Below, piece by piece: positions 1,341 to 64,000 of a stretch of DNA of 64,000 nucleotides (positions are counted from its first letter, which is position 1; every line of letters starts with the position of its first letter). The position numbers were made by a program, and so were the translations under genes. Source of the DNA: Dehalococcoidia bacterium (lineage in GTDB: Bacteria > Chloroflexota > Dehalococcoidia > Lucifugimonadales > GCA-2712585); assembly GCA_965261665.1 (NCBI GenBank), contig OZ253467.1, positions 2,777,798 to 2,841,797 of the forward strand, written 5' to 3'. The notes beneath the pieces were generated by a model, which saw only the letters and a program-made list of their open reading frames with translations, ran no database searches and was not told the DNA's origin.

Positions 1341-1371
1341 TGCATGTTATACTAGCCCCAGTTAGCAGGCT

Positions 1372-3216: not shown

Positions 3217-3249
3217 GCGTGAATTCCGCTAAGGACGGCGACTAGAGTC

Positions 3250-3969
3250 ATGCTAGAGGGACTGCCAAATATATCCGTCATCGTTCCTACCTACAATGAG
3301 GTGGACAACGTAGAAGACCTGATAGAGGGCTTGCGCTCTGTGCTGGAGGGCACGGATTTTCAGATAGTGGTGGTGGACGACAACAGCCCTGACGGTACCT
3401 ACTACGCTGTGAAGCAGATTGCCGAGCGGGATTCGCACATAACGCCCATCCTTCGGCCGGGCAAGCTGGGTCTGGCCAGCGCCGTTCTTCACGGTTTCAG
3501 GGCGTCCGACGGTAAGCTCGTGGTGATGATGGACTCGGACCTTTCGCACCGCCCGCAGGACCTCCCTGAACTGCTGGAAGCGGCCAGGGAGTCGGACATC
3601 GTGATAGGCTCACGGTACGTAGATGGCGGCTCTATATTTGGAATGACGCCCTACCGGAAACTAGCCAGCCGGGTTTCCATCAGCATATCCCGGATGATGC
3701 TTGGGCTTCGCTATCAGGACACTACGTCCGGGTTTGCCGTCTTCCGACGGGGCATACTCGACCACGCGGCGCCCAAGTTGGAACCTAACGGATTCAAGCT
3801 GCTGCTTGAGGTGCTGGTGAAGTGTCCCGAGGCGCAGGTGGCGGAAGTCCCAATCACCTTTGTAAATCGTAGGCGGGGGCGTTCCAAATTCGGCGCGGGA
3901 GAAGTGTTTAAGTTTCTCCGGCTGTGCTATGACCTACGTCGACATCAGGGAAGGGCTAATCAGGACTAG
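3250..3969 (+). CDS. GT2 polyprenol/dolichol-phosphate mannosyltransferase-like glycosyltransferase
   Basis: ISVIVPTYNEVDN...VVVDDNSPDGT...MDSDLSH motifs typical of Dpm1/Ppm1-type GT2 enzymes. Confidence 0.8.
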   Translation: MLEGLPNISVIVPTYNEVDNVEDLIEGLRSVLEGTDFQIVVVDDNSPDGTYYAVKQIAERDSHITPILRPGKLGLASAVLHGFRASDGKLVVMMDSDLSHRPQDLPELLEAARESDIVIGSRYVDGGSIFGMTPYRKLASRVSISISRMMLGLRYQDTTSGFAVFRRGILDHAAPKLEPNGFKLLLEVLVKCPEAQVAEVPITFVNRRRGRSKFGAGEVFKFLRLCYDLRRHQGRANQD

Positions 3970-3978
3970 CTCCCGGCC

Positions 3979-4191
3979 CTAGGCTCCTTTGCTGTCGAGC
4001 CAGTGAAGAACGCGCGAGGAAAGTGGTCGTATTAGGCGGGCGCCCAAGGCAATGATAGCCACACCTGACACCACCACCGGCGGCCCACCGACGTGAGAAC
4101 CAAGTATGGCCACGGCGGTGCCGAGTAGCACTATCAGTATTGATAGGAGGGCACGTCTGAGCACGGCTATGTTATTTGGACTGCTACTCAT
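3979..4191 (-). CDS. small hydrophobic protein (2 predicted TM helices), function unknown
   Basis: 70-aa ORF with two hydrophobic stretches. No obvious RBS, so coding status is uncertain. Confidence 0.35.
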   Translation of the reverse strand: MSSSPNNIAVLRRALLSILIVLLGTAVAILGSHVGGPPVVVSGVAIIALGARLIRPLSSRVLHWLDSKGA

Positions 4192-4426
4192 ATTGTCATG
4201 TCAAGCGAAGACCGGGACGCCCACTTCGAGATCCTCAGTCGGGGTTCCAATGGTGATGGGGATAGGGTATCCAACCCTCGTATAGCCGTCAATACGGCGG
4301 GTGTTGAGGGCCTATTGGTGGTAAACTATCAAGCCGCAGCTATGAGTAGAAGGGAATGCAAGAGAGCCGCGCCTGCCTGTGACCACAGCTACGCCCTGAA
4401 TAGAAGGCAGGGGTGGCTAGTATCCC

Positions 4427-4909
4427 ATGATTGATGCCCTGGCTGTAGTTGGCATGGCCGCCGTACCAGTGGGGGAGCTCCGGTTCGCCGTTCCCTGGGC
4501 CATGATTCACTTTGGTTTTCCCTGGTATCAGGCCTTCGTCCTAGCCCTAATCGGCAACCTGATTCCAGTCCTGATACTACCAGGACTGCTTCAACGGCTG
4601 GGGCATTTGCTTCTGAAAGCGCCCAAGCCCCTTGGAAGCGTCGTACAGTGGCGCATCGAGAGGCTCAAGGGCGGAGCTGGGACCTGGGTTGCAAGATACG
4701 GACGATGGGCGCTGGTCCCATTCGTGGCGACGCCGCTGCCCTTCACAGGCGCCTGGACGGGCTGCTTGCTGGCGTGGGCGATGGACGTTCACCCCAGGAA
4801 GTCTATGCCGATGTTGGCCCTGGGCGTTCTGATAGCGGCGATTTTGGTGACGACGCTAACGGGGTTGGGAGTTTCGATAAGCGTGTTCCTGGCTGACCAG
4901 CCGGAATAG
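4427..4909 (+). CDS. small multidrug-export-like integral membrane protein (COG2426-like)
   Basis: 160 aa, multi-TM. N-terminal GELRFAVPWAM...FPWYQAFVLALIGNLIPV resembles the Sm_multidrug_ex family. Confidence 0.6.
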   Translation: MIDALAVVGMAAVPVGELRFAVPWAMIHFGFPWYQAFVLALIGNLIPVLILPGLLQRLGHLLLKAPKPLGSVVQWRIERLKGGAGTWVARYGRWALVPFVATPLPFTGAWTGCLLAWAMDVHPRKSMPMLALGVLIAAILVTTLTGLGVSISVFLADQPE

Positions 4910-4941
4910 GGAAAGAAATAAAAAGGGAGGTTGTACAGAAT

Positions 4942-5136
4942 ATGTACGATAATTCGGGAAGTAACTTGGCTACTCTCATCAAGCGGCATAGGCTTTCTGC
5001 CGTTGCCAACGGGGCACTTGTAGGAATGGGAGTCTTCTTTGTGGTCTATGGCGGGTTGATAGGAGTTGTGGGAATCGTGGCCGGGGTGGGGCTGGAGCTT
5101 TGGCAGCGTAGCCGGGTTTCCAAGGAGTTGGGCTAG
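4942..5136 (+). CDS. small membrane protein, unknown function
   Basis: 64-aa ORF preceded by a GGGAGG RBS, with a Gly/Val-rich TM segment. Confidence 0.45.
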   Translation: MYDNSGSNLATLIKRHRLSAVANGALVGMGVFFVVYGGLIGVVGIVAGVGLELWQRSRVSKELG

Positions 5137-5451
5137 GCGAAACGCCCACGGCGCGGCTTTGCCCGCGTCTACTATTTCAACGTTCGGTCCATGACAGGAA
5201 TTTGGCAGGAGCCCGTCCTGTTGGTCGTTTAGGACGTATAGCGAGGATTTTCACTACTAGGAATCGGTTCGCAAACGCGCTGACTGTAACGAAGGGGGGT
5301 CGAATTGCGGACGTGGTCGCCTGTGAAGGGATGTCCCTGAGGGGTCGGGAGGGTAGGGGATGGGTCCCCGCATCCGCGAGGACAACGGAGATTGGGGACG
5401 GGCGGTTCGCGAACCGCTCCTACGGGAGGAGAGGGATGGGTCCCCGCATCC

Positions 5452-5574
5452 GGAGACCTTTGCATAACTATCGAATCGCATTCAGATGGCGGTGTAGTAC
5501 GACTCTTGACATAGCTAAATCATGGGATTCTGGATTCCGGCTTTCGCCGGAATGACGGTTATGCAAAGGTCTCC
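5452..5574. mobile_element. MITE-like non-autonomous insertion (123 bp) with perfect 17-bp terminal inverted repeats and 4-bp flanking duplication
   Basis: TIRs are GGAGACCTTTGCATAAC (5452-5468) and GTTATGCAAAGGTCTCC (5558-5574). ATCC flanks both ends (5448-5451, 5575-5578). In-silico excision restores a sequence about 90 percent identical to the neighbouring motif copy at 5357-5390. Confidence 0.5.
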
Positions 5575-5618
5575 ATCCGCGGGAACAGCGGAGGGGGAGG
5601 GGGATGAGGTAGGGTGTC

Positions 5619-8465
5619 TTACTGGCCTGAGGCCCGTTGTAGGATAGCCTCTATCTCATCTAGCTGATGGCCCAAGCCTTCCAGTGCCCGCCGCAGTTCA
5701 TCGATTTCATCCGGCGTAAGCGTCACGTCATCTGTGGGCGTGGTGAAGCTGGACGACGAGGACGGCCCACGCGTCGGCCTTGGCGACACCGGTTGTGGGA
5801 AAATCATGCCGGCGTCTTCCGCTACGGCAGGCGCAACGGCGGGAATCTCTCCTTTGAGAGCCCGCACTGCGTCAGCCAGAGTAGGCTGCATAACCACCCG
5901 ACTGCCGTCGGCCAAAATTATGCGGCGGAGTTCTGGGAATTCAAGCGCCTCCGGTTTCAGGAAGATGGGTTCGGCGTACAGGATTGAATCACCCACGGGA
6001 ATGACCAGCATGTTGCCGCGCTGTACTTCAGAACCCACTTGACCCCACAGGGTGAACTGCTGAGAAATGGCGGCGTCGTTGTCGATGCGGGCCTCAATCT
6101 GGTTGGGGCCGAGGATGCTCTTGCCTTCGGGGAAGCTGTACAGCACCATCTCGCCGTAGTTGGGAGCGTCGTTACGGACTGCCATCCACGCTTTCAGGGG
6201 GTCGCGCCTGTCGGGAGTGAAGGGCTGAATGAGCAGGAACTCTTCTTTCTCTTCGCCGGGCAGCCTGGCCAGGATGTAGTAGGGGTCCAGGGATGCCTCA
6301 CGCCCGAAGGCGCTCTGGACGGGTATGGACCACTGGTCGCCCTTCTGGAAGAAGGTCTCCGGGTTGGTCATGTGGTATTGGAGCAGCATGCGAGTCTGGA
6401 CGGTGAACATGTCCCGCGGGTAGCGGACGTGGTCCTTCAGATAGTCGGGCAGCTCTTCCATGTTCTTGAACAGGGAAGGGAAGATCTTCATGTAGCTTCG
6501 GATTAGTGGGTCGTCCGGGTCGGAGACGTAGTAGTCGATGGTGCCGTTGTAGGTGTCCGCCACCGCCTTGACACTGTTGCGTATATAGTTGAAGCCGGTG
6601 CCCTCCCAAGGGGTGGAGTAGGGGTACTGGGGCGTTGTGGTGTAGCCGTCCTGTATGAAGAAGATGCGCCCGTCCGCCACCACCTGGTAGGGGTCGCTGT
6701 CCGGCGTGAGGAAGGGTGTGATTGTGGCGAAGCGCTCCGGCACTGTTCGGCGGTACTGGATTCGGCTCTTGGAGTTATCGACCTGACCGGAGATGAAGAT
6801 GTTGATGTCGCGGAACTGCCAGGCGTAGGCGGCCCTGCGGACGATATTGCTCAGGCCGACGCCGCCGGTTCCGGCGTACTCGCGGAAAACCGGCTCGGCG
6901 CCTTCGCCCTGGTAGTCCAACTCCGGCTGAGTTGAACGGACTATGACGAAGGGGAGGCTCTTCAGGCCGTAGTAAACGCCCGCTTCAGTGAGGGCCAACT
7001 CCTCGTAACCCTCGGCGGGAGAGGCGGGAACGTCCTTGAGCAGCATCCGGGGCTGACCGTTGGCGTTGACCTCGTTGACGCCGCTGACAGCTACGCCGTG
7101 GCCGTGGGTATAGACCAGGTGACGGTTCACCCAGTTCTGGGCTTCCTCCGGGAGCTTCTCCGAGGAGATCTCCCTGCTGGACAGCATCACCTGCTGGACT
7201 TCGCCGTTCAGCAGGTAGCGGTCGACGCCCACGCTTGCGAAATCGTAGAAGAATTGGACGAACTCCACCTGGTTGTAGATTTCCCCAAGGGGGCGTTCGT
7301 CCCACAGCCGGATGTTTTCGATGGTGCCCAGGTTTTCTTCGATGGCTTCAGGGGTGATAGTGTCCAGGCCAAGATGGTTCCGCTCCGTCTGATGGTCTAT
7401 TCCGAAGGCTTGACGGGTGAAGGTAATGTTGTTGCCCAGATATCTCTCTTCCTTGGCGAACTCGTTGGGTTCTACCTGGAAGCGCTGCACCACGTTGGGG
7501 AAGACGCCGCCCACGAGAATGGCCATGCCCAGCCAGAGGCCGATGGCGCTAATTATCATGCGGTATCCGGGGCGGAAGGCGCCGGCAATCATAAGGCCGC
7601 CGCTGACCAGGGCTATGATGGTCAGGATGGTGCGGACGGTAATGCGGGCGTTATCGTCGGTGAAGCCCACGCCAAAGACGGCGCCGGCGTCGGAGTAGAG
7701 AAGTTCCCACCGGCCAATCCAGTGGCCGGCGGCGATGATAATGAACAGGGCGGCTCCGATGGCCGCCACGTGGATTTTTACGTTGCTGGGAATGGTGACG
7801 TTGCGCTCCCTGAGCCCGAAGAGGACCAGGTAAAGGCCCAGCACGATGATCAGGATGACTACGGCAGCGCCGAGGAACCATCCGCGGATGAAGCCGAGGA
7901 AGGGGAGGGTAAATACGTAGAAGTCCACGCCCTTGTTGAAGATGGGCTCCGCCAGGGGAGATACGGCGCCGGTGGCTTCGTCCACCTGGGTGAATGGGCT
8001 GGAATTCAGGTACTTGAGCACCGTTTCCCATCGACCCGCAGCTGCCGCACCGACGGCGGCGGCCGCAACGATGGCTGCAACGGAAGCGGCCAGAGCCAGC
8101 ACGCGTCGTATGGCATCGTAAGCCGCCCGGGTGAGGGTGGTAGGCGTGTCGCTTCGAGTGAGGCGGAATACCAGATATATGTTGGGAACTAGAAGGACAG
8201 TGAAGATGGCGGCGCTGGCAAAGAACAGCCAAATCCGCGTGATCAGTATTTTGCCGAAGACGCTTACGTAGCCAAGGCTGTCGAACCAGAGCCAGTCGGT
8301 GTAGACGCTCTTGCCCCAGGAAAGCCCGATTATGAGGAAAAGGACGAAGGTTCCGGCGGCCACCCATCGAACGGAGCGGCTGCTCCACATGGGAAGGTTA
8401 AGGTCGCCCACGTCTATGGGGCCGCGTCGACCAGCGTTGCCGTTATCTCCGTATTGGTTGCTCAT
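5619..8465 (-). CDS. UPF0182 family large membrane protein
   Basis: 948 aa with an N-terminal multi-TM region plus a large soluble part. Motifs such as HVRYPRDMFTVQTRMLLQYHMTNPETFF and LVIPVGDSILYAEPIFL are typical of UPF0182/COG1615. Confidence 0.85.
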   Translation of the reverse strand: MSNQYGDNGNAGRRGPIDVGDLNLPMWSSRSVRWVAAGTFVLFLIIGLSWGKSVYTDWLWFDSLGYVSVFGKILITRIWLFFASAAIFTVLLVPNIYLVFRLTRSDTPTTLTRAAYDAIRRVLALAASVAAIVAAAAVGAAAAGRWETVLKYLNSSPFTQVDEATGAVSPLAEPIFNKGVDFYVFTLPFLGFIRGWFLGAAVVILIIVLGLYLVLFGLRERNVTIPSNVKIHVAAIGAALFIIIAAGHWIGRWELLYSDAGAVFGVGFTDDNARITVRTILTIIALVSGGLMIAGAFRPGYRMIISAIGLWLGMAILVGGVFPNVVQRFQVEPNEFAKEERYLGNNITFTRQAFGIDHQTERNHLGLDTITPEAIEENLGTIENIRLWDERPLGEIYNQVEFVQFFYDFASVGVDRYLLNGEVQQVMLSSREISSEKLPEEAQNWVNRHLVYTHGHGVAVSGVNEVNANGQPRMLLKDVPASPAEGYEELALTEAGVYYGLKSLPFVIVRSTQPELDYQGEGAEPVFREYAGTGGVGLSNIVRRAAYAWQFRDINIFISGQVDNSKSRIQYRRTVPERFATITPFLTPDSDPYQVVADGRIFFIQDGYTTTPQYPYSTPWEGTGFNYIRNSVKAVADTYNGTIDYYVSDPDDPLIRSYMKIFPSLFKNMEELPDYLKDHVRYPRDMFTVQTRMLLQYHMTNPETFFQKGDQWSIPVQSAFGREASLDPYYILARLPGEEKEEFLLIQPFTPDRRDPLKAWMAVRNDAPNYGEMVLYSFPEGKSILGPNQIEARIDNDAAISQQFTLWGQVGSEVQRGNMLVIPVGDSILYAEPIFLKPEALEFPELRRIILADGSRVVMQPTLADAVRALKGEIPAVAPAVAEDAGMIFPQPVSPRPTRGPSSSSSFTTPTDDVTLTPDEIDELRRALEGLGHQLDEIEAILQRASGQ

Positions 8466-32108: not shown

Positions 32109-35446
<3,338 letters not shown>

Positions 35447-35466
35447 CCGCCCACCCGTTGTGGCTA

Positions 35467-35495
35467 TTGACACACGGATTATTGAGATTCAATAT
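35467..35495 (+). promoter_or_regulatory. sigma70-like promoter candidate for the Cascade operon (cas3-cse1 intergenic)
   Basis: TTGACA (35467-35472), 17 nt spacer, CAATAT (35490-35495), in a locally AT-rich gap. Confidence 0.45.
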
Positions 35496-35547
35496 ATCAT
35501 TGTCGGTTCCTTGTCAACTACCAAGTTCAGCCTATGGAGGCTTGCCC

Positions 35548-37137
35548 TTGCTCAACATCCTAACCGAACCTCTAATACGCTTCGACCATTCCGGTGGGCG
35601 GCGCGTGGAAGCATCCCTGCCACAAGTCTACGCCGCGCTCATAGCCGACGAAATTGACGCCTTCCCCGCGCTTCGTCCCCATCAACGTCACGCCTGGCAC
35701 GCCTTCCTGGTCCAGCTTGGCGTCATCGCCATGCACCGGGCGGATATGACCGAGCCTCCGACGGACGCGGACGAATGGCGCCGCATCATCCGCGCCCTCA
35801 CCAAAGAAGAATTCCCAAACGACGAACCCTGGAGCCTCGTCGTGGAAGACATCACCAAGCCCGCCTTCATGCAACCCCCAGCCACCTCCAAGGAACGGGA
35901 GAAGGAATTCAAGAATGTCGTATCCACCCCCGACGAACTGGATATGCTGGTCACCGCCAAGAACCACGACCTGAAATCTACTGTCGCTGGCCTGGCCAGC
36001 GCGGATGACTGGATTTTTGCCCTGATAACCCTTCAGACGATGGAGGGGTTCAGCGGAGCCGGCAACTACGGCATCTCTCGAATGAACGGCGGCTTGGGGA
36101 ACCGTCCCGCTCTAACTCTCGCTCCTCTCAACAACACCCCAGGCGCACACGTGGAGCGTGACATTCTCGCTCTCCAGGCACACTGGCCCGACATTCAAGA
36201 GAGGGGAGACGCACCCGAAAACGGGACTTCCCTTCTCTGGACTATGCCTTGGGACGGGACCCCTCTTGAAAGCCTGTTGTCCGACCGTCTACATCCCCTT
36301 TACGTAGAGATTTGTCGACGCATACGGCTGCGCTCAGCCTCCAAAGCATCGTTGCACGCAATCAGAGCAACCTCCAAGGCCGCCCGTATCCGGGGGAAGG
36401 AATTAAAGGGTCGCACCGGCGATCCCTGGACTCCGACGAATGCCAGTAGAGATGGCCTGCCTCTCACCCTAAGCAGCGGCGGATTTACATACAAGAGACT
36501 CACCGACTATCTCTTTTCTTGGACTAATCCAGCCCTGCTGCGATCATCTGAATCTGAGCGTCGGTCCCGACAGACGATGAAGTTGGTGGGCCGCGCAACG
36601 GTAAGGGGCCAGGGCAAAACTGAAGGTCACTACGAACGGGAGATTCCGTTTCGGTTTAAGGCCCACCAAGTTCTAGGCAGGAGAAATGCCTCTGAGTTGG
36701 GAGACATCGCCAGGAAGCGCATTGACGAAGTTGGCACAGTCCAACGAATTCTGAGTCACGCCATCCAGACTTTCGCCGCCAGAGGCGAGACTGGCAACAT
36801 CAGTCCTGAGCATCGTGCCCTAGCCCGGCCATGGCTGAACCGGCTGGACGACATTGTAGACGCCAGCTTCTTTGACGACCTTCAGGATGAATTCGACGCT
36901 GAGAACAGCGAGCGCGAGGGCATCCGCATCCGATGGCTTCTGAACGGCACGGGCGGTGTAGTTAACCACGCTCGCCGCTTACTCCAGGAGGCCACTGACA
37001 CGCTGCCCTGCCCGGCAATCCACCGCTACAAGGCCCGCGTCCGAGCCGAGGGGTTGTTCGAGGGAAGAATCCGCGGCGCCCAGGGACTGCCGTTTCTGTT
37101 CGCTGACGACCAGGAAAGGAATCACGAAGCATCATGA
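35548..37137 (+). CDS. cse1: Cascade large subunit Cse1/CasA (Cas8e)
   Basis: Size and position match the I-E operon. TTG 35548, 7 nt after GGAGG, gives (M)LNILTEPLIRF, like the canonical Cse1 N-terminus NLLxEPWIPV. The ORF track starts at 35458. Confidence 0.88.
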   Translation: MLNILTEPLIRFDHSGGRRVEASLPQVYAALIADEIDAFPALRPHQRHAWHAFLVQLGVIAMHRADMTEPPTDADEWRRIIRALTKEEFPNDEPWSLVVEDITKPAFMQPPATSKEREKEFKNVVSTPDELDMLVTAKNHDLKSTVAGLASADDWIFALITLQTMEGFSGAGNYGISRMNGGLGNRPALTLAPLNNTPGAHVERDILALQAHWPDIQERGDAPENGTSLLWTMPWDGTPLESLLSDRLHPLYVEICRRIRLRSASKASLHAIRATSKAARIRGKELKGRTGDPWTPTNASRDGLPLTLSSGGFTYKRLTDYLFSWTNPALLRSSESERRSRQTMKLVGRATVRGQGKTEGHYEREIPFRFKAHQVLGRRNASELGDIARKRIDEVGTVQRILSHAIQTFAARGETGNISPEHRALARPWLNRLDDIVDASFFDDLQDEFDAENSEREGIRIRWLLNGTGGVVNHARRLLQEATDTLPCPAIHRYKARVRAEGLFEGRIRGAQGLPFLFADDQERNHEAS

Positions 37138-37745
37138 ACGCCCAAACCATCGATACGCCAAGCGTTGACGTTGAGCAAAGCCGGCCCAAGCCCCGCGGCG
37201 ACATCGCTGTTGGCTTTGCATATCAGATGGCCCGCCCAGACTTTCGACGGGGAGATCTGGCGGAACTTCGTCGCATGAACCCGTACGAACCCGACAAGGC
37301 AATTTTTTGGAAGCTAATGGCGGAACAAGACCTATTGGGCAATCCCGACCGCGAAGGCAAATGGGCGCTCATTCTTCACGGCATTGCTCTGATGACGCCC
37401 AGGAATCCCACTAGCCTTCAGGGCAGCGCCCACGATGGACGCAACTATGTGGGAACCGCCCTGTTCCTTGGCGGCGAATCCCAGCGAGCGCAGGCTTTCT
37501 ACAGCGAAGCCAGACTCAACCGGCTGTTGACAGCGCGGGATGCGATGCTAAGGACCCTGCTGACTAGAATGTTCCGCATGCTCTCCGCCGCCGACGTTGC
37601 TTTCAATTGGCGGGAGATGGCCCACTTCATTCTCGTCGCTGATTTAAATGAGAAGGCGGCAGAGGAGGCGCGCCGTCGAATCGCCCGCGCCTATTACCGC
37701 GCAGAGCGGCAAAGTGCCGTAAAATCCGAGAATCAGGACAACTAA
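37134..37745 (+). CDS. cse2: Cascade small subunit Cse2/CasB (Cas11)
   Basis: 203-aa helical Arg-rich protein (DLAELRRMNP). ATGA overlap with cse1; I-E gene order. Confidence 0.88.
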   Translation: MNAQTIDTPSVDVEQSRPKPRGDIAVGFAYQMARPDFRRGDLAELRRMNPYEPDKAIFWKLMAEQDLLGNPDREGKWALILHGIALMTPRNPTSLQGSAHDGRNYVGTALFLGGESQRAQAFYSEARLNRLLTARDAMLRTLLTRMFRMLSAADVAFNWREMAHFILVADLNEKAAEEARRRIARAYYRAERQSAVKSENQDN

Positions 37746-37765
37746 ATCAAAAGAGGAGTTCCTGA

Positions 37766-38953
37766 ATGACCACACCCAGATTCCTGCAGATACACACCCT
37801 GCACTCGTATCCGGCGGCGCTTCTGAACCGGGACGACAGCGGCCTCGCCAAGCGCATGCCCTTCGGCGGCGCGATCCGCACCCGCATTTCCTCCCAGTGC
37901 CTCAAACGGCACTGGCGGGACCCCAAGGACGAAAAGAAGCACGAATTCGCCTTGCACCGCATTCCTGACGCAGTGACAGCCACTCGCTCCCGCAACGTCG
38001 TTGAACGCATGGTAATGATGCCTCTGCGAGAAAACGACGGAGCTACAGAAGACGTGCTCATCGCCGTGGCAGAGGCCTTCAACGTGGGCGTATACGGTGG
38101 CAGCGGCACCTCCGAATCCGGTCGCCAGCCGTTGTTGCTCGGCCTCCCCGAGGTGGAGTACCTTCAAGAAAAGGCGCAGGCCATCTGCGGCGAGCATCCC
38201 GACGATGCAAGCGCGGCCAAGAAGGCCGCGGAGGATCTGTTCAACGTCCGACGTGGAGAAGGCGCTAACTTCCGCGCCTTTCGAGAAACCGCCCGTCTCC
38301 CCGGAGGTTTGGAGGGAGCGCTGTTCGGGCGGATGGTGACCTCCGACCCCGGCGCTAACATAGACGCCGCCGTCCACGTCGCCCACGCCTTCACCGTCCA
38401 CGCCGAAGAGTCCGAAAGCGACTACTTCTCCGTTGTCGACGATCTCCAAAGCGACGATGAGGACCCCGGCGCCGCACATATAGGTGACATGGAACTGACT
38501 GCCGGCCTCTTCTACGGCTACGTGGTCGTCGACGTTCCCGGTCTGGTTTCCAACCTGGAAGGGTGTGAAGCTGGGCAGTGGCAGGACGCCGACAGGTCCC
38601 TCTCCGCCAAAGTCGTCGAGCACCTCATCCACCTCATCGCTACAGTTTCCCCCGGCGCCAAGCTCGGTTCCACCGCCCCCTACGGTCGTGCCCGGTTCAT
38701 GCTGGTCGAAGCCGGCTCCGACCAGCCGTACAGCCTCGCCGACGCCTTCCGCGCCCCCGTCAATCCTAGGATGCGGGATGCTCTCAAGGCTCTGGAATCC
38801 GAAATCGAACGCCAGGACGCGGCCTACGGCGTGTCGGGAACGCGGCGGTTTATGTCAATGGACAACTGCGAAATTCCATCGTCCGAGCGTGTAAACCTGA
38901 ACGAACTTGCTTCGTGGGCGGCGGATGTCGTGCACACAGGCGCGGCGGCGTAG
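37766..38953 (+). CDS. cas7: Cascade backbone Cas7e/CasC
   Basis: FLQIHTLHSYPAALLNRDDSGLAKRMPFGGAIRTRISSQCLKRHWR, the typical Cas7e N-terminus; 395 aa. Confidence 0.95.
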   Translation: MTTPRFLQIHTLHSYPAALLNRDDSGLAKRMPFGGAIRTRISSQCLKRHWRDPKDEKKHEFALHRIPDAVTATRSRNVVERMVMMPLRENDGATEDVLIAVAEAFNVGVYGGSGTSESGRQPLLLGLPEVEYLQEKAQAICGEHPDDASAAKKAAEDLFNVRRGEGANFRAFRETARLPGGLEGALFGRMVTSDPGANIDAAVHVAHAFTVHAEESESDYFSVVDDLQSDDEDPGAAHIGDMELTAGLFYGYVVVDVPGLVSNLEGCEAGQWQDADRSLSAKVVEHLIHLIATVSPGAKLGSTAPYGRARFMLVEAGSDQPYSLADAFRAPVNPRMRDALKALESEIERQDAAYGVSGTRRFMSMDNCEIPSSERVNLNELASWAADVVHTGAAA

Positions 38954-38955
38954 CC

Positions 38956-39690
38956 ATGCGCCATCTCATCCTCCGCCTCGAAGCTCCCCTCATGGCCTTC
39001 GGCGGCGAGACCATCGACAACTACGGCGTCGTCCGGCCCTTCCCCGCCGCCTCCATGATAACCGGCCTCCTCGCCAACGCCCTCGGCTGGCGCCGCATCG
39101 AGAGGGAGCGTCATCAGCAACTCCAGGACCGGCTCGTCTTCGCCGCCCGCATCGACCGGGAACCCCTCAACCGGCTCAGCATGCAAGACTTTCAGACCGC
39201 ACAGTTGGCCAAAAACGATATGGGTTGGACGACCCGCGGCGTCCCGGAAGGACGCGCAGGCGGCGCAGCTACCTACAACGCGCCTCATCTTCGCTACCGC
39301 GACTACTACGCAGATAGGCGCGTCACCGTCGCCCTTCGGCTGAATCCCGAAAACGGCGCACCCACCCTGGACGACCTTGCGGATGCGCTCCAACGCCCCA
39401 AGCGTCCCCTCTTCATCGGACGCAAGCCCTGCCTGCCTTCCGCGCCGATTTTCGGATGCTTCGCCGACGGAGAAACCTCCATAGAGGCGCTGCTGAATAT
39501 CCCAATAACCGACGGTCGGGACAATAACCAGCGTCTTCGCCTCCAGTGGCCTGGCAGCGAAAGCGACGAACGCGTCCAATCCACAAACACCCACATGATT
39601 ACAGACCAGCGCAACTGGATTTCAGGGCTGCACGGCGGCGGACGTTTGGTCTGCGAGGGCGAATATACCCCAATCGAGGACCAAGAATGA
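38956..39690 (+). CDS. cas5: Cas5e/CasD
   Basis: MRHLILRLEAPLMAFGG...ASMITGLLANALG, the canonical Cas5e start. ATG is 2 nt after the cas7 stop. Confidence 0.93.
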   Translation: MRHLILRLEAPLMAFGGETIDNYGVVRPFPAASMITGLLANALGWRRIERERHQQLQDRLVFAARIDREPLNRLSMQDFQTAQLAKNDMGWTTRGVPEGRAGGAATYNAPHLRYRDYYADRRVTVALRLNPENGAPTLDDLADALQRPKRPLFIGRKPCLPSAPIFGCFADGETSIEALLNIPITDGRDNNQRLRLQWPGSESDERVQSTNTHMITDQRNWISGLHGGGRLVCEGEYTPIEDQE

Positions 39691-40508
39691 CTACACAATT
39701 TAATACCCTTCCCATTGTGGCCGCCCTTCAGATGATCCGAGCCGAAATCAACCTCCGGGAGTTCAACCGCTGGATGGGTAGTAAGCGACTGCAGGACCCG
39801 GACCATGCCATGCACTGCTTGCTGAAAGAATGCTTCGGTGAACTGGCTCCACTGCCCTTTCGCCTCATAGCGCCTCGTCAAGGGTCCCGCGGGTTTCTCT
39901 ATGGCTACGGCACAACCGACGCCTCGGCCCTTCGGGACGCTGCCGCCATCTACGCCGACCCGCTTCAATGCCGCATCATGCCCCTCCATAAACTGGACAG
40001 CAAGCCCATGCCATCCCAATGGCAAATGGGCAAACGACTAGGCTTCGAAACACGCATCCGTCCCGTCGTACGCCTCCAAAAGGACCTCTCGCGTGTTCCG
40101 GCCGACAAGCTGCGTCTTTTCCGAGTGAATCGGCGGAATGGTGACGATCCGGAAAAGCAACCTCGCCCTGGTAAAGAATGCGACGCCTTCCAGTGGGAGG
40201 CGCTCCTGCAACCCAAAAGGGGAATGAACCGTAGCCGGGAGGAAGTCTACAACGAGTGGCTTGGATCGAAACTAAAAGGATGCGGCGGGGCATCCCTGGA
40301 ACCCGGTGAAACCCGGCTCGTCTCCTTCCAGCGCACCCGCGCCATTCGAAAACGTCACGCCCGTTACAGCGAGGGGCCGGACGCCGTCATGCGTGGCATT
40401 CTCAGAATAACGGACCCCGACGCCTTTGCCGCCCTGCTGGCCCGGGGCGTCGGCCGGCATCGCGCCTACGGCTACGGGATGCTGCTCCTACGGCCCCCTC
40501 ACAAATGA
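39687..40508 (+). CDS. cas6e: Cas6e/CasE crRNA endoribonuclease
   Basis: ATGA overlap with cas5. C-terminal glycine-rich loop GVGRHRAYGYGMLLL, comparable to E. coli GIGPAKSMGCGLLSL. Confidence 0.88.
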   Translation: MTTQFNTLPIVAALQMIRAEINLREFNRWMGSKRLQDPDHAMHCLLKECFGELAPLPFRLIAPRQGSRGFLYGYGTTDASALRDAAAIYADPLQCRIMPLHKLDSKPMPSQWQMGKRLGFETRIRPVVRLQKDLSRVPADKLRLFRVNRRNGDDPEKQPRPGKECDAFQWEALLQPKRGMNRSREEVYNEWLGSKLKGCGGASLEPGETRLVSFQRTRAIRKRHARYSEGPDAVMRGILRITDPDAFAALLARGVGRHRAYGYGMLLLRPPHK

Positions 40509-40598
40509 GACCCGGGCCTTTTGCACCTTACCAACTGAATAATGCCTTCCTGGTTCCCAGCGCACGAGCGGGGAACTAGGAACCATAGGAGGACCACC

Positions 40599-41534
40599 AT
40601 GCTCAGAGGCAGATTAGGGCTGGAAACGGCGAGGGTGCCCCACGCAGACCGTCACGGCCTGTTGTGGCTAAGCCGCGGCGCCCTCGCCGTTAAGGACGGC
40701 ACCTTGCGCTTTCTCCGGAATGATGGTGCGGACAGGTCCAGTCCGTTGGAAAGCGGCGAGTACGGCATCCCCTTTCAATCCCTCTCCATGATACTGCTGG
40801 GGCCGGGATCCACCGTTAGCCACGACGCCCTCCGTCTCATGGCGCGGCACGGAACCGCCCTAGTCGCCGTTGGGGAGGACGGTGTCAGGTGTTATACCGC
40901 TCCCCCGTTGATGCCGGACTCATCCGACATAGCCCGCCGGCAAATGCGGGCATGGGGGGATCCGAAGGGCGGGCGCATAGCCATCGCCCGAAAAATGTAC
41001 GCCCTGCGTCTTGGAGAGGTGCTTCCATTCCACGACTTGAACGCTCTACGCGGCGTTGAAGGAGGACGCGCAAAAAAGATGTACCGGCACCTTGCCCAGC
41101 GATATGGAATCACCTGGCAAGGCCGACGCTACGACCGTGGTAATCCCCTTGCGGCGGATATACCCAATCAAGCCGTAAACCACGCGTCCGTGGCCGTTAC
41201 CTCAGCTGCCGTCATTGCTGTGACCTCGGTTGGCGCCATTCCCCAGCTGGGATTCATACACGAGCACAGCGGCGACGCCTTCGCCTTGGACATTGCCGAC
41301 CTGTTTCGGGATAACGTCCTACTTCCAGCTGCCTTCAAGTCCGCCAAAGCAGTAATTGACAACCCCACCCTGGACATAGAGCGGCATACAAGACGGACGA
41401 CGGGAGAGATGCTCCGGAGCGAGCGGGTTGTGTCGAAAATGATCGACCGAATAAAGGCCCTCTTTCAGGACGTCTCGCCCCTTGACGTAGAGTCGCCGAC
41501 ACCGAAAAAGGGAAGTGGGAGGGCAAAACAATGA
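40599..41534 (+). CDS. cas1: Cas1e integrase
   Basis: 311 aa from ATG 40599, 7 nt after AGGAGG. Conserved LGFIHEHSGDAFALDIADLFR region; I-E gene order. Confidence 0.95.
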   Translation: MLRGRLGLETARVPHADRHGLLWLSRGALAVKDGTLRFLRNDGADRSSPLESGEYGIPFQSLSMILLGPGSTVSHDALRLMARHGTALVAVGEDGVRCYTAPPLMPDSSDIARRQMRAWGDPKGGRIAIARKMYALRLGEVLPFHDLNALRGVEGGRAKKMYRHLAQRYGITWQGRRYDRGNPLAADIPNQAVNHASVAVTSAAVIAVTSVGAIPQLGFIHEHSGDAFALDIADLFRDNVLLPAAFKSAKAVIDNPTLDIERHTRRTTGEMLRSERVVSKMIDRIKALFQDVSPLDVESPTPKKGSGRAKQ

Positions 41535-41818
41535 CCGTGGTAGTAACAGTAAACGTAGAAGCCCGCTATCGGGGATTCCTCGCATCCGTAATGCTGGAAA
41601 TAGCGCCTGGCGTGTACACGTCCCCCCAGATGACAGACGGAATTAGAGAGAGGATTTGGGACGTTTTAACACGTTGGTACTACGAACTAGGACAAGGAGC
41701 CATAGTGATGACTTGGCGTGATCCGTCCGCTGCGGCAGAACAAAGGATTAGGACCCTTGGCGAAGCGCCCAAGGAGATTGTGGATGCCGACGGAGTCTAT
41801 CTAGTGAAGTACAACTAG
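41531..41818 (+). CDS. cas2: Cas2e
   Basis: 95 aa, MTVVVTVNVEARYRGFLASVMLEIAPGVYT. ATGA overlap with cas1. No fused DnaQ domain. Confidence 0.93.
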   Translation: MTVVVTVNVEARYRGFLASVMLEIAPGVYTSPQMTDGIRERIWDVLTRWYYELGQGAIVMTWRDPSAAAEQRIRTLGEAPKEIVDADGVYLVKYN

Positions 41819-41920
41819 ACCAATGCCGCAACACTGCCGATAAGACGTTTCGGTCCAGGTTAGAAGCAAGAGCAACGGAGTAGCAGAACACGGCTAACAA
41901 GAATTACGAAAATCGTTAGG
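41819..41920 (+). promoter_or_regulatory. CRISPR leader
   Basis: 102-bp non-coding, locally AT-richer segment between the cas2 stop and the first repeat. This is the position of the I-E leader. Confidence 0.6.
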
Positions 41921-50900: not shown

Positions 50901-53490
50901 CACCCGCGGGGATAGACCTCTGAGTGAGGCCATCGCCGAACTGGAAAGCGCGGTTCCCCCGCACCCGCGGGGATAGACCGGCAGAAGAGAGCCGCCGGAT
51001 TGCACAGAAGCTGGTTCCCCCGCACCCGCGGGGATAGACCGATTTGAGATGCTTTTTTGTTGCTTCAAATTTCGGTTCCCCCGCACCCGCGGGGATAGAC
51101 CTCTATGATATCCGGTATCTCGGCCCAGTGAGACGGTTCCCCCGCACCCGCGGGGATAGACCACCATCTCCGTCCTTTTTCCGAAGCGTCCATTCGGTTC
51201 CCCCGCACCCGCGGGGATAGACCCCATGCTTCCCTTGGTCGGTTTTTCCAGCTCAAGGTTCCCCCGCACCCGCGGGGATAGACCTAGTAGTGTAGCACGT
51301 AAAAGAGGCGAGAAGGCGGTTCCCCCGCACCCGCGGGGATAGACCGCTAGAAGCAATGGAAGCAAAGGCAGACACAAAAGACAACGTGGTTCCCCCGCAC
51401 CCGCGGGGATAGACCTATGAAAAAAACCGAAGCCGAAGAATTTAAACTGGTTCCCCCGCACCCGCGGGGATAGACCGGAGCATAGAATGATTTCAGATAA
51501 GGCCTTAGAGGTTCCCCCGCACCCGCGGGGATAGACCCTGCAAACGGTATGGCCCAATCCAAAAATTAAAGGTTCCCCCGCACCCGCGGGGATAGACCTC
51601 CTTCGTCATAAACCCAGAATCCCTTTCCATTGGTTCCCCCGCACCCGCGGGGATAGACCTCTGGGCGTCCACGGCACGGCACGGGCGTTACGGGTTCCCC
51701 CGCACCCGCGGGGATAGACCCACTCACTGGCTACTTCTCCTTTGCTGTTATAGGGTTCCCCCGCACCCGCGGGGATAGACCTCAAGGACTCCATGAAAGA
51801 CATTGAGCCATATAGGTTCCCCCGCACCCGCGGGGATAGACCTTATTACATCTGGCTTTAGCAAATCTATCTGCAGGTTCCCCCGCACCCGCGGGGATAG
51901 ACCTCGAAAATCTGCAGTCCGTGTTCGGCGATAAGGGGTTCCCCCGCACCCGCGGGGATAGACCCTAGACTGAGAACATTTGAAGGTTTGGTGAATGGGT
52001 TCCCCCGCACCCGCGGGGATAGACCTTTTTAATTAGGAACGCCAACGCCCTCTGAGCGGGTTCCCCCGCACCCGCGGGGATAGACCCGATGCAGTCTTGG
52101 TTTGCGGCATATTTCCTTTGGTTCCCCCGCACCCGCGGGGATAGACCCTCCATACCATAATAATCCACCAAAGTTTGTAGGGTTCCCCCGCACCCGCGGG
52201 GATAGACCGTAGTAAAAAGCCCTGAACCTATCCAAACTATCGGTTCCCCCGCACCCGCGGGGATAGACCGTTTGTAGAGTCTTTATCCCTTTAGCTATTG
52301 TCGGTTCCCCCGCACCCGCGGGGATAGACCCCCTCTCCACTGCGGGCAGGCGGCACGGCGAAGGGTTCCCCCGCACCCGCGGGGATAGACCCTTTTAAAT
52401 GAACGGTCAGCTATCCTTGACTTTGGTTCCCCCGCACCCGCGGGGATAGACCGGTGGCGGGCTTCGCCGTGCCGCCTGCCGTATAGGTTCCCCCGCACCC
52501 GCGGGGATAGACCTTTCGCAAGGTCGATTTGCCTCTTCTCTTCTGCGGGTTCCCCCGCACCCGCGGGGATAGACCTTTGGTGGTATATATGAAACAACTG
52601 CATCAAAGGGTTCCCCCGCACCCGCGGGGATAGACCGTAAATCACTGGCGCAGCCCGCCAAGAAGGAGGGGTTCCCCCGCACCCGCGGGGATAGACCGTG
52701 ACGTCTTTAATGCTTTCACCTTACCGTTATGGTTCCCCCGCACCCGCGGGGATAGACCTCAAGCATATAGATGCTTGGGCAGAAAATGTCGGGTTCCCCC
52801 GCACCCGCGGGGATAGACCGTGAGCAGTCAAAGGGGGTTTCAAACCCCAGACGGTTCCCCCGCACCCGCGGGGATAGACCTTTGCCTCTTCTCTTCTGCC
52901 TCTTCCCGCAGTAGGTTCCCCCGCACCCGCGGGGATAGACCGGTAATCGTCGTTTGGCCTCGAGAAAAAGTGGAGGTTCCCCCGCACCCGCGGGGATAGA
53001 CCGCTTACAGGGAGAGGCGCAAAGACGATAAGGGCGGTTCCCCCGCACCCGCGGGGATAGACCGTTAAGGTCTCCGTCCCTTTTTGCCACAATTGGGGTT
53101 CCCCCGCACCCGCGGGGATAGACCATAGGAGGGCCGGAGCTCTGAAGGAGAAAATTCGGTTCCCCCGCACCCGCGGGGATAGACCGGTGAGCGGTTGACA
53201 GTAACGCAAACCACACCGGGTTCCCCCGCACCCGCGGGGATAGACCGCGGTCATGGATTTCTTGCAGTCGGTAGAGGATGGTTCCCCCGCACCCGCGGGG
53301 ATAGACCCGTACATTGAAGGGCTGATGCGCAGAGTCGCTGGGTTCCCCCGCACCCGCGGGGATAGACCCACTACTCTCGGCGCAAGACGCCGCCCATCGG
53401 CGGTTCCCCCGCACCCGCGGGGATAGACCGGAGTATAAAAATGATTTCAGATAAAGGCTTAGGGTTCCCCCGCACCCGCGGGGATAGACC

Positions 53491-53734
53491 ATATGTATGT
53501 CATTCTTTTGCTCTCCCTTCCTTGGTTCCCCCGCACCCGCGGGGATAGACCTCCGCACAAACCGACCTCGCCAAGGAATATGAGGGTTCCCCCGCACCCG
53601 CGGGGATAGACCATATGTATGTCATTCTTTTGCTCTCCCTTCCTTGGTTCCCCCGCACCCGCGGGGATAGACCTCCGCACAAACCGACCTCGCCAAGGAA
53701 TATGAGGGTTCCCCCGCACCCGCGGGGATAGACC
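53491..53734 (+). repeat. tandem duplication of a 2-spacer block (2 x 122 bp) inside the array
   Basis: The spacers starting ATATGTATGTCATTC... and TCCGCACAAACCGAC... occur identically at 53491/53552 and again at 53613/53674. Confidence 0.95.
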
Positions 53735-55931: not shown

Positions 55932-56663
55932 TTTTCCTATATCATCCCTACATCAAGTCAATCAGGTTCCCCCGCACCCGCGGGGATAGACCGCACCGAA
56001 TGACTTATCCATACGCTAGTCTATCGGTTCCCCCGCACCCGCGGGGATAGACCTGTGAACATCTTTGGGAGTATGCCTTTGAAGCTGGTTCCCCCGCACC
56101 CGCGGGGATAGACCCGGGCGATTTGGAGGGAGGTTTGTGTCCGGGGCGGTTCCCCCGCACCCGCGGGGATAGACCTAGACCTGGGGATGGACATCCTAAG
56201 CAGGGTGGGGTTCCCCCGCACCCGCGGGGATAGACCCCGATAATTCTTCGGGAACCTACAAATCGCGATGGTTCCCCCGCACCCGCGGGGATAGACCTTT
56301 TCCTATATCATCCCTACATCAAGTCAATCAGGTTCCCCCGCACCCGCGGGGATAGACCGCACCGAATGACTTATCCATACGCTAGTCTATCGGTTCCCCC
56401 GCACCCGCGGGGATAGACCTGTGAACATCTTTGGGAGTATGCCTTTGAAGCTGGTTCCCCCGCACCCGCGGGGATAGACCCGGGCGATTTGGAGGGAGGT
56501 TTGTGTCCGGGGCGGTTCCCCCGCACCCGCGGGGATAGACCTAGACCTGGGGATGGACATCCTAAGCAGGGTGGGGTTCCCCCGCACCCGCGGGGATAGA
56601 CCCCGATAATTCTTCGGGAACCTACAAATCGCGATGGTTCCCCCGCACCCGCGGGGATAGACC
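55932..56663 (+). repeat. tandem duplication of a 6-spacer block (2 x 366 bp) inside the array
   Basis: Six consecutive spacers (55932-56269) recur in the same order at 56298-56635. Confidence 0.95.
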
Positions 56664-59600: not shown

Positions 59601-62600
59601 TTGATGTTGATAGGAATATGCGTTAGGTTCCCCCGCACCCGCGGGGATAGACCCTTGGTGAAGCGAGCGTCTCGAAGGCTCAAGGGGGTTCCCCCGCACC
59701 CGCGGGGATAGACCCGATCGGACGTGAGGATATATGGACCGTTGAAAGGTTCCCCCGCACCCGCGGGGATAGACCGAACCGGTATATGGATGCGTGGTCA
59801 CAAAACAGGGTTCCCCCGCACCCGCGGGGATAGACCGTGATCCAAGTCCTCCTAATACTGGTGAAGTGTGGTTCCCCCGCACCCGCGGGGATAGACCATC
59901 GCCCTTGCGTACATCACGACTATTGATGAAGGTTCCCCCGCACCCGCGGGGATAGACCGGTAATAACTAAGGTGTTACCTGTAGTACCTGGGGTTCCCCC
60001 GCACCCGCGGGGATAGACCGCCTCCAGGGGATGTTCCGACAACAGGACCTCCGGTTCCCCCGCACCCGCGGGGATAGACCTAGTACGATGCCGGGCTACC
60101 TGGGCACGGGTACGGTTCCCCCGCACCCGCGGGGATAGACCCGCTAACATCGTCCAAGAATGCGGGCATGAAGAGGTTCCCCCGCACCCGCGGGGATAGA
60201 CCTTCACTTGCTGTCCATCGCCCGTGGCCATAATCGGTTCCCCCGCACCCGCGGGGATAGACCCAGCCCAGGAACCAGCACCACTATCAACTGATAGGTT
60301 CCCCCGCACCCGCGGGGATAGACCCGAGGGCCGTCTGGAGCTTGACGCACGGGCGGCGGTTCCCCCGCACCCGCGGGGATAGACCTTTCGCGACAGTGTT
60401 GGACGACCTGAAAATTGAGGTTCCCCCGCACCCGCGGGGATAGACCCCCTGGCCTCTTGTCTTCAAACGAAGGTAAAGAGGTTCCCCCGCACCCGCGGGG
60501 ATAGACCGAGGCTATACAATGACTACGATTGAAGCCCCGGGGTTCCCCCGCACCCGCGGGGATAGACCTCTTGATTAGTGGGTCAATCAATCCTTCGTTG
60601 TGGTTCCCCCGCACCCGCGGGGATAGACCTAGTCTACCGTCAAAGTTGGAGTTAGAGTACATGGTTCCCCCGCACCCGCGGGGATAGACCGGTTGGATGT
60701 CCTTCTCATGGGAACGAAGCGTTGGTTCCCCCGCACCCGCGGGGATAGACCCCCTTCGAAGCCCACACCAATAACCGCCGGCCAGGTTCCCCCGCACCCG
60801 CGGGGATAGACCTCACTCCCGAAACCCACAAACGCCTGAGTTATAGGTTCCCCCGCACCCGCGGGGATAGACCGTGTGTCGGCGACGTGGTGCTGATGAC
60901 ATGCTGGGTTCCCCCGCACCCGCGGGGATAGACCTATCAGAAAAGACTGCATCCGCCCAACCAGTTAGGTTCCCCCGCACCCGCGGGGATAGACCCATCA
61001 GCCGAGACTGGCCAGACCCCCCCCAAGTGGTTCCCCCGCACCCGCGGGGATAGACCCGTAGAGCACCTTTTGCAAGCGCAGCTAAACCTGGTTCCCCCGC
61101 ACCCGCGGGGATAGACCCGCCATCAATGGAAGACATGATGAAGGCATTGCGGTTCCCCCGCACCCGCGGGGATAGACCCGTCGCTCTCCTAATATCCGTC
61201 GAGGTCTCCGAGGTTCCCCCGCACCCGCGGGGATAGACCCGACGCCTTAGCTTGCCCATCCTTTATCCACGCGGTTCCCCCGCACCCGCGGGGATAGACC
61301 CCCTACGGATAGCCGCTAGGCGCACCTTCGACGGGTTCCCCCGCACCCGCGGGGATAGACCCTTTATATATTGGAGGTTCACCAATGCTTGCCAGGTTCC
61401 CCCGCACCCGCGGGGATAGACCCTCCAAGACGTACCGGCTCTTCCATATTTGTGTGGTTCCCCCGCACCCGCGGGGATAGACCCTCCAACCTCACTCCCG
61501 GAACCTGATCCAAAATGGTTCCCCCGCACCCGCGGGGATAGACCGAAGGCATTCCTCAACGCTGCCCGACAGGGCGTGGTTCCCCCGCACTCGCGGGGAT
61601 AGACCTTAGTTTCACAGCTTCCCTATCAAGTCGGGGGAGGTTCCCCCGCACCCGCGGGGATAGACCGCAGGACCACAGCAAAGCCCACCACCACGAGTCG
61701 GTTCCCCCGCACCCGCGGGGATAGACCCTGCTCTTGCTCATAACGTCGGTAGTGCGGTGGGGTTCCCCCGCACCCGCGGGGATAGACCCGTTGGTTAGCG
61801 TCAATATAGCGTTGGACATCGGGTTCCCCCGCACCCGCGGGGATAGACCGTCGTTGCCCCAGAATGCCAAGGTCGTCGTTACGGTTCCCCCGCACCCGCG
61901 GGGATAGACCTCGACCACCATAGACGGCTTCTGGGCTTACATCGGTTCCCCCGCACCCGCGGGGATAGACCCTCCTAAATGCAGACGACAGCCCCATGCG
62001 GCTGGGTTCCCCCGCACCCGCGGGGATAGACCGTCCGTGGAAGACTCCAAGGGCGAATTGGACCGGGTTCCCCCGCACCCGCGGGGATAGACCACCTGGT
62101 CTACAGACCCGACCGCATCAGCCTTGGGTTCCCCCGCACCCGCGGGGATAGACCCTGCACGGACTGCGGGAAGATTAAGAGGATAACGGTTCCCCCGCAC
62201 CCGCGGGGATAGACCTCGGTCTCTAGTATACACGCTATCCCGCCGTTTGGTTCCCCCGCACCCGCGGGGATAGACCTCTGGCAGGGTACTACGGGGACGT
62301 AGTGACGAGGGTTCCCCCGCACCCGCGGGGATAGACCTGGCACATACACCGCAGGCGAGACCCTGAGAGTGGTTCCCCCGCACCCGCGGGGATAGACCTC
62401 GCCTACGTAGTCCGCAAAGTCGGTTATTTCAGGTTCCCCCGCACCCGCGGGGATAGACCCGCTTGGCTGATCGGCATTACCCAAACCGCCAAGGTTCCCC
62501 CGCACCCGCGGGGATAGACCGCTGTTGCTGGACGATCAGTATAGCATCCTGGGGGTTCCCCCGCACCCGCGGGGATAGACCCGTAACGACTGCCGCCGGT

Positions 62601-63070: not shown

Positions 63071-63436
63071 CACGCATAGCGATGTTACCAGCGTACAGAG
63101 ACGGGTTCCCCCGCACCCGCGGGGATAGACCGTTAGCGGGGAAAACCCTAATCAGTCATTCACGGGTTCCCCCGCACCCGCGGGGATAGACCGGTTAACA
63201 ATTTCAAGTCTCCGAGTCATGCAATGGTTCCCCCGCACCCGCGGGGATAGACCCACGCATAGCGATGTTACCAGCGTACAGAGACGGGTTCCCCCGCACC
63301 CGCGGGGATAGACCGTTAGCGGGGAAAACCCTAATCAGTCATTCACGGGTTCCCCCGCACCCGCGGGGATAGACCGGTTAACAATTTCAAGTCTCCGAGT
63401 CATGCAATGGTTCCCCCGCACCCGCGGGGATAGACC
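63071..63436 (+). repeat. tandem duplication of a 3-spacer block (2 x 183 bp) inside the array
   Basis: Spacers at 63071, 63132 and 63193 recur identically at 63254, 63315 and 63376. Confidence 0.95.
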
Positions 63437-63770
63437 GTGGCTAGCACCCTCCATTCTCTGGCCTGTTTGGGTTCCCCCGCACCCGCGGGGATAGACCCTC
63501 ATACGCCTTGTCGGTGTCGCTGGTGGGAACGGTTCCCCCGCACCCGCGGGGATAGACCCATAAACCCTGCTTATGCCGTGACGAGACAGTAGGTTCCCCC
63601 GCACCCGCGGGGATAGACCCTCCTCCCACCATGACACCAACTCCTTTGCCCCTGGTTCCCCCGCACCCGCGGGGATAGACCGGTCCTAGAGTGGCTAGGG
63701 CCCTCTGAGCCGCTGGTTCCCCCGCACCCGCGGGGATAGACCCCGTACCTAGTCATTGCTTCCTCCTCTT

Positions 63771-63916
63771 AGAGCGTGTCTAATAAATCCCTTTGCTACC
63801 TCGAGCGCTCCATGTCACCTTGAGTGAAGCCGAAGGATCTGGAGTTGGAGGGGCGGACTTCGCTGCCTAACAGATGTTTATGCTTCGCTCCACCGGCGCC
63901 TTTTTAGACACCCTCT
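63771..63916. mobile_element. MITE-like insertion splitting a CRISPR spacer
   Basis: The gap between repeats is 180 nt instead of 33. An 8-bp direct repeat CCTCTTAG lies at 63765-63772 and 63912-63919, 147 bp apart. Imperfect inverted ends are AGAGCGTGTCTAA and TTAGACACCCTCT. Removing 147 bp restores a 33-nt spacer. Confidence 0.45.
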
Positions 63917-63922
63917 TAGGTG

Positions 63923-64000
63923 GGTTCCCCCGCACCCGCGGGGATAGACCTGCGCCAACCTTCAAGGGCAAGCGGTTGAAGAGGGTTCCCCCGCACCCGC
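63923..64000 (+). CRISPR. continuation of the array after the insertion (repeat 359, one spacer, truncated repeat 360)
   Basis: Same repeat at 63923-63950 and from 63984 to the window end, with a 33-nt spacer between them. Confidence 0.9.

Follow-up and report, generated by a model that had tools for sequence, protein, structure and literature searches.

The 64-kb stretch of DNA analysed here (the window) contains a very long type I-E CRISPR array, and a 144-bp non-autonomous MITE of IS5-family lineage (IS1031/IS427-like) has, with a probability that we put at roughly nine in ten, inserted into its spacer 358. The segment looks like a MITE: it is shorter than about 500 bp, has no transposase ORF, carries TIRs, is bordered by a target-site duplication (TSD), exists as dispersed copies and has its ends in common with an autonomous insertion sequence (IS). 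That a MITE-like element had transposed into a spacer was the original prediction, and the further copies, the direct duplication of a TNA triplet and the IS with the same ends that are described below all uphold it. Its dimensions have to be revised, however, since the TSD comprises 3 rather than 8 bp and the element itself 144 bp.

The array belongs to a complete type I-E locus. Its cas operon (cas3, cse1, cse2, cas7, cas5, cas6e, cas1 and cas2; 32753–41818, plus strand) was assigned with NCBIfam, all eight type I-E models being matched (Cas3, Cse1/CasA, Cse2/CasB, Cas7/CasC, Cas5e, Cas6e, Cas1e and Cas2e). A leader of 102 nt, read directly as the interval from the cas2 stop to the first repeat (41819–41920, plus strand), is followed by the array itself (41921–64000, plus strand). 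Regex mapping of the window placed the 28-nt repeat GGTTCCCCCGCACCCGCGGGGATAGACC on this strand 359 times in full and once in part from position 41921 onwards, and the array continues past the window end; the opposite strand of the window contains no copy of the repeat. Among the 358 spacers, 348 measure 33 nt, eight measure 34 nt, and one each measures 42 and 180 nt. The period of about 61 bp (28-nt repeat plus 33-nt spacer), directly adjoining a I-E operon, is that of a type I-E array. Since the leader and the complete operon lie immediately upstream of the repeats, the array reads from left to right; counted from the leader, which is about 22 kb away, the interrupted spacer is number 358. 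Past repeat 359, which follows it, only one more spacer and a partial repeat lie within the window.

With at least 359 repeats spread over more than 22 kb, and still running at the window end, the array is exceptionally long. Its repeats are nearly invariant, the single variant being a C to T change in the copy at 61578–61605, and 343 of the 358 spacers in the window are unique. Blocks of spacers are duplicated in tandem at three places: spacers 230–235 equal 236–241 (55932–56635), 347–349 equal 350–352 (63071–63408) and 190/191 equal 192/193 (53491–53706). Single spacers also recur far apart, for example 2 as 72 and 163 as 248. The one 42-nt spacer, GCTAGAAGCAATGGAAGCAAAGGCAGACACAAAAGACAACGT, lies at 51346–51387, against a length of 33–34 nt elsewhere.

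The abnormal gap is just where it had been reported. Repeat 358 (63715–63742) and repeat 359 (63923–63950), both intact according to sequence and repeat mapping and both on the plus strand, are separated by 180 nt (63743–63922) instead of the usual 33. In plus-strand order, the interval opens with the left 26 nt of the original spacer 358, CCGTACCTAGTCATTGCTTCCTCCTC (63743–63768), the final C of which is the first base of a CTNAG target. The left copy of the TSD, TTA (3 bp; 63769–63771), was recognised from the direct TNA duplication in the family, and is followed by the MITE proper (144 bp; 63772–63915), delimited by alignment with six further copies (L069, L071, L059, L083, L001 and L058). 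Then come the right copy of the TSD, again TTA (63916–63918), and the right 4 nt of the original spacer, GGTG (63919–63922), the first G of which is the last base of the target; sequence and family alignment together define these parts, as they do the left remnant of the spacer.

The TIRs of the element are 15 bp long and imperfect. The left one, GAGCGTGTCTAATAA (63772–63786, plus strand), differs by two substitutions from the family consensus GAGGGTGTCTAAAAA, whereas the right one, TTTTTAGACACCCTC (63901–63915, plus strand), has exactly this consensus as its reverse complement, such that the two match at 13 of 15 positions. The ends first proposed, AGAGCGTGTCTAA (63771–63783) and TTAGACACCCTCT (63904–63916), are indeed complementary at 12 of 13 positions, but each takes in one base of the TSD. 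Coding capacity is nil, as had been claimed, the ORFs that overlap the element all being 34 aa or shorter. Likewise, the direct repeat CCTCTTAG recurs at 63765–63772 and 63912–63919, spaced by 147 bp, and deletion of 147 bp does leave a 33-nt spacer, CCGTACCTAGTCATTGCTTCCTCCTCTTAGGTG, which is of the modal length (348/358). This exact reconstruction suggests that an ordinary spacer of 33 nt stood here before the insertion.

Comparison within the family fixed the limits of the element and the nature of the duplication. In a seven-way alignment, the block of homology begins GAG(C/T)GTGTCTAATAAATCC and ends CCTTTTTAGACACCCTC, the motif at the ends of the element being GAG(G/C)GTGTCTAA(A/T)AA. Directly outside the block, each of the seven copies is preceded by C-TWA and followed by TWA-G, and in six of the seven close copies among the matches listed the same W stands on both sides (TTA/TTA or TAA/TAA). 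The TNA is therefore a direct duplication and not an extension of the inverted repeat, because an extension would pair TTA with TAA. For the wider family, the TSD was assessed in the 55 pattern matches with GAGN...NCTC ends among the matches listed. Here, 31 of the 55 carry TNA on both flanks; the triplet is identical on the two sides in 28 of these 31 (TAA 12, TTA 9, TGA 4 and TCA 3), and 24 of the 31 have C before and G after it.

Judged by these alignments, the TSD is a 3-bp TTA within a CTNAG target, here the CTTAG of spacer 358, and the 144-bp element plus the 3-bp TSD accounts for the 147 bp of the original prediction. An 8-bp TSD around an element of 139 bp is ruled out, as the family alignment places CCTC inside the element. 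The 8-bp direct repeat is instead made up of the TSD (3), the target G and four bases (CCTC) common to the spacer and the element's right end; this match, to the left of the TSD in the spacer, may reflect chance or a target preference. CTNAG is absent from the repeat, and CTWAG occurs 16 times in the spacers, which suffices to account for a spacer, and not a repeat, having been hit.

Further copies were identified by scanning the GTDB species-representative genomes for GTGTCTAAWAA and TTWTTAGACAC separated by a gap of 99–129 nt, a pattern that represents the inner part of the two ends and for which only a handful of chance matches was expected. It was present at at least 99 loci, and when the 180-nt interval was compared with them by BLAST, at least six full-length matches of 152–155 bp emerged; among the matches listed, their identity ranged from 91.6 to 96.7% and their E-values from 1e-57 to 2e-68. 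Five of these copies are in the Dehalococcoidia MAG CBDCSX01, on two contigs (L069, L071, L059, L001 and L058), and one is in the Dehalococcoidia MAG OZ250180 (L083), again among the matches listed. All six are intergenic, lying between stop-to-stop frames, their flanks are unrelated to one another and to the window, and the homology ends at identical boundaries in every one. The CRISPR repeat GGTTCCCCCGCACCCGCGGGGATAGACC was found in none of the 99 loci among the matches listed. Unrelated flanks, intergenic sites and the lack of a CRISPR repeat together mark a dispersed multi-copy element rather than one specific to arrays. The search for additional copies that had been proposed thus succeeded in Dehalococcoidia MAGs, though the 64-kb window itself holds no second one. 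The original prediction had also named what would speak against it, namely the absence of any other copy combined with homology to a leader; copies do exist, and similarity to the leader is nil. No match to the element was obtained from plasmid and phage databases, nor was a MITE-specific 20-mer matched in the JGI metagenomes or IMG/VR.

Elements of 120–150 bp that end in GAGGGTGTCTAAAAA...TTTTTAGACACCCTC are also present in very distant phyla among the matches listed, including Bacteroidota (L002, L008, L021, L024, L053 and others), DPANN archaea (L007, L022, L026, L064 and L070) and Opitutales (L003, L016, L042 and L057). Copies from Chloroflexota and Opitutales have TNA duplications; those from Bacteroidota are instead flanked by AAA...TTT, and so may be another kind of element with the same core.

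A partner IS was sought in the loci from the end-pattern scan as a pair of the same ends lying 0.4–3 kb apart. This yielded an 871-bp element in the Dehalococcoidia MAG CBDCYP01 (L081:2020–2890), bounded on both sides by GAGGGTGTCTAAAAAG, and a second copy of it in L036. The right end of the MITE in the window is identical over 16–17 nt to the inverted repeats of this IS. The minus strand of the IS contains two consecutive ORFs, the first of which matches DUF4096 (PF13340, 'putative transposase of IS4/5 family'; E 2.4e-30) and the second DDE_Tnp_1 (PF01609; E 2.7e-16) as well as DDE_Tnp_1_2; jointly, they span positions 1–112 and 138–258 of the NCBIfam model NF033580, 'IS5 family transposase'. 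Such a two-ORF layout would be expected for an IS5-family transposase produced by frameshift. An autonomous IS with the same ends, which the original prediction had wanted to see, therefore exists in a related MAG, and an IS of this type is a likely mobilising partner for the MITE in the window. The window contains neither an IS5-type transposase nor a further TIR, and a partner in the same cell is therefore a presumed one. None of the spacers in the window targets the MITE or the 871-bp IS.

Within IS5, GAG ends and 3-bp duplications are typical of the IS1031 subgroup, and two ORFs of the IS427 subgroup. The two ORFs of the partner suggest a frameshift of the IS427 kind, and TNA together with the GAG ends suggests an affinity with IS1031, the members of which are reported to prefer TNA targets (PMC1676026). 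The partner may thus be designated 'IS1031/IS427-type', a label set by these subgroup descriptions. At L081:2020–3033, the 871-bp IS directly adjoins a 140-bp MITE of a sister subfamily, one TAA being common to both. The interior of this sister MITE, …TCATTCTGAGCGAAGCCGAAGAATCT…, resembles that of the MITE in the window, …TCACCTTGAGTGAAGCCGAAGGATCT….

The established chemistry of the DDE transposases of the IS5 family suggests how the insertion may have come about. A DDE transposase encoded by a full-length IS at another genomic site would act in trans, binding both ends of the element, and would excise or copy it. The element would then be joined to staggered cuts, three bases apart, at CTTAG in the spacer, and repair of the 3-nt stagger would duplicate TTA.

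As a result of the insertion, spacer 358 has grown from 33 to 180 nt, while the flanking repeats and all the other spacers are untouched. Repeat-finding software will see two arrays. At the level of RNA, Cas6e would be expected to cut at the two intact flanking repeats and release an RNA of about 208 nt, which would not fit the fixed-length backbone of Cascade. As its handles would enclose 180 nt and not 33, a normal Cascade should not form, and one old spacer has presumably been lost as a guide. Leader-distal spacers are the oldest of an array, and with the site about 22 kb from the leader, the insertion is most likely neutral. Transcription also seems more likely to read through the element than to terminate. 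The original prediction had suggested that the element may terminate or re-initiate pre-crRNA transcription, for which the consensus scans described below give no support. All these effects on crRNA are predictions.

We consider it very unlikely that the element is not neutral, in the sense of a conserved internal hairpin plus T-run, or a cryptic outward promoter, acting on the pre-crRNA of this array of more than 22 kb. If it did so, it would insulate or terminate transcription, or else restart it so that the very distal spacers are expressed, and MITEs would then modulate which stretch of a giant array is in use. It is very doubtful that the element has been co-opted to influence how the distal array is expressed, whether by acting as a terminator, an insulator or an internal promoter or through a functional RNA. 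The predicted RNA fold is modestly more stable than shuffled sequences (z −2.5 to −2.8), the right end of the element has a T5 run, and the alignment contains a compensatory pair, GC to AU, at columns 66/104. However, that pair is one of 40 in an alignment of seven closely related copies, for which the covariation term amounts to only −0.73 kcal/mol, and the extra stability of the fold is mostly pairing of TIR with TIR, as in any MITE. Moreover, no sigma-70-type promoter consensus and no intrinsic-terminator consensus occurs on either strand of 63400–64000, the Rfam scan of 63600–64000 returned noise only (E >5) and thus no family, and only about 1.3 repeat units are seen downstream of the element.

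It is highly improbable that metagenome assembly misplaced a repeated element into the array. The source is apparently an assembly of metagenome type, its relatives being ENA long-read contigs, and repeats do attract mis-joins; yet neither a perfect 3-bp duplication at the preferred CTNAG nor flanks that sum to exactly 33 nt would result from a mis-join. We find it scarcely credible that the interval is an aberrant over-long spacer, or foreign DNA brought in by the adaptation machinery or by recombination and not by transposition. Long inserts do arise by other routes in these arrays, as shown by a relative in which 274 nt of non-repeat sequence other than this MITE interrupt the array (L103:17714–17987), but the TIRs, the TTA/TTA duplication at a CTNAG site and boundaries that coincide with those of six other copies are features of transposition, and the leftover flanks add up to exactly one normal spacer. 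Finally, the idea that the segment is a second leader, with the sequence 3' of it a separate array under its own promoter, can for practical purposes be dismissed: the ends of the segment are AT-richer, it lies between repeats and array-finding software would call two arrays, but it does not resemble the leader that the array already has (41819–41920), lacks a promoter consensus, occurs as at least six copies at non-CRISPR intergenic loci and leaves, on removal, an exact 33-nt spacer.

The insert in L103 lies between two intact repeats of the array of a related strain. It is coding-like (a stop, then an ORF starting with ATG), lacks TIRs, does not resemble the MITE and may be captured foreign DNA or a product of recombination.

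Transposition of a MITE into the spacer would imply an earlier, empty allele, which the original prediction had hoped to meet in other strains. The exact Cas2 protein of the window is encoded on at least 21 ENA assembly contigs, L103 among them, and the closest relative among the matches listed, L101 (ERZ26694896:ctg104999), has 97.7% identity with the window along most of the cas operon and 93% along the cas1-cas2-leader end. The window thus belongs to the Dehalococcoidia-like lineage of these contigs, though it is part of none of those examined. The uninterrupted spacer did not turn up in ten related arrays, of which that in L101 was covered to about 5 kb before the contig end. A 30-mer common to the filled and empty alleles was absent from the JGI metagenomes and IMG/VR. 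The restored spacer CCGTACCTAGTCATTGCTTCCTCCTCTTAGGTG had no match when the phage database was searched for protospacers, and it is absent from the other spacers of the window. Loci reached via a conserved downstream AttH-like gene contained no CRISPR repeat and had no similarity to the window.

L101 and the window have about a dozen spacers in common, with order and spacing partly rearranged; spacers 139–149 of L101 correspond to 278–289 of the window, with local repeats. Read side by side, the two spacer orders point to recombination or duplication within these arrays. Four other relatives with an identical Cas2 (L100, L107, L109 and L110) have a different front half of the operon, at positions of about 1000–6500. 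Their Cas3 is 1019–1163 aa long, with an fn3 domain in L100 and L110, and a single protein of about 500–630 aa without a Pfam match takes the place of Cse1 and Cse2.

A text search of the literature with the MITE end sequence returned unrelated primers only and no description of the family, and a keyword search combining Dehalococcoidia, MITE and insertion sequence returned nothing that mentions Dehalococcoidia. The IS5-type MITEs of Dehalococcoidia, for which a CTNAG/TNA target can be defined, thus appear to form an undescribed family. The insertion of MITEs and ISs into CRISPR loci is already documented, and the family behaves as a textbook IS5-type MITE, so that the insertion is an event of an ordinary kind that leaves the current view of CRISPR or MITE function unchanged. 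What it contributes is one more MITE insertion into a CRISPR array, resolved to the base. It also calls for caution in the annotation of arrays and spacers: besides the two arrays, CRISPR finders will report one bogus 180-nt spacer, and MITE sequence could pass for spacer content when hosts are linked to viruses.

Among known systems, the IS1031/IS427-type elements of IS5 generate a 3-bp TNA duplication and are about 0.85–1 kb long. The 871-bp IS described above resembles them in its two-ORF transposase (DUF4096 plus DDE_Tnp_1, NF033580) and in the TNA duplication of its family. The element in the window has no transposase and differs from them in this respect, the ends alone being in common. 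Eukaryotes offer a parallel, as the PIF/Harbinger transposase is related to that of IS5. Tourist-type MITEs, which belong to this superfamily, have the TSD TWA (PMC2836001). By analogy, the element in the window is like Tourist MITEs in its small size, its TIRs, its 3-bp TTA/TAA duplication and its probable mobilisation in trans by an IS5-related DDE transposase. It is unlike them in being prokaryotic and unrelated in sequence, and its family accepts any TNA (TGA and TCA as well).

Mobile elements are also known to land in CRISPR-Cas loci and alter their content, as the insertion of IS6110 in the DR locus of Mycobacterium tuberculosis illustrates. Transposition of ISs into cas genes has likewise been surveyed (PMC10359306). 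The case described here is of the same general kind; those insertions, however, involve autonomous ISs and have often clearly cost the host its immunity, whereas the MITE has eliminated a single distal spacer with no damage to the cas genes. A preprint that cites Hou et al. 2019 (bioRxiv 10.1101/2020.04.14.041012) describes CR_6 and CR_7 of Anabaena sp. PCC 7120 as a single array divided by a MITE of 134 nt. The situation there is like that in the window, in that a short non-coding element with TIRs, of about 130–150 nt, lies in an otherwise continuous array and causes one array to be annotated as two. It differs in the host (Cyanobacteria as opposed to Dehalococcoidia/Chloroflexota), in the type of CRISPR and in the family of the MITE, and the insertion point, the TSD and the restored spacer are here defined to the base.
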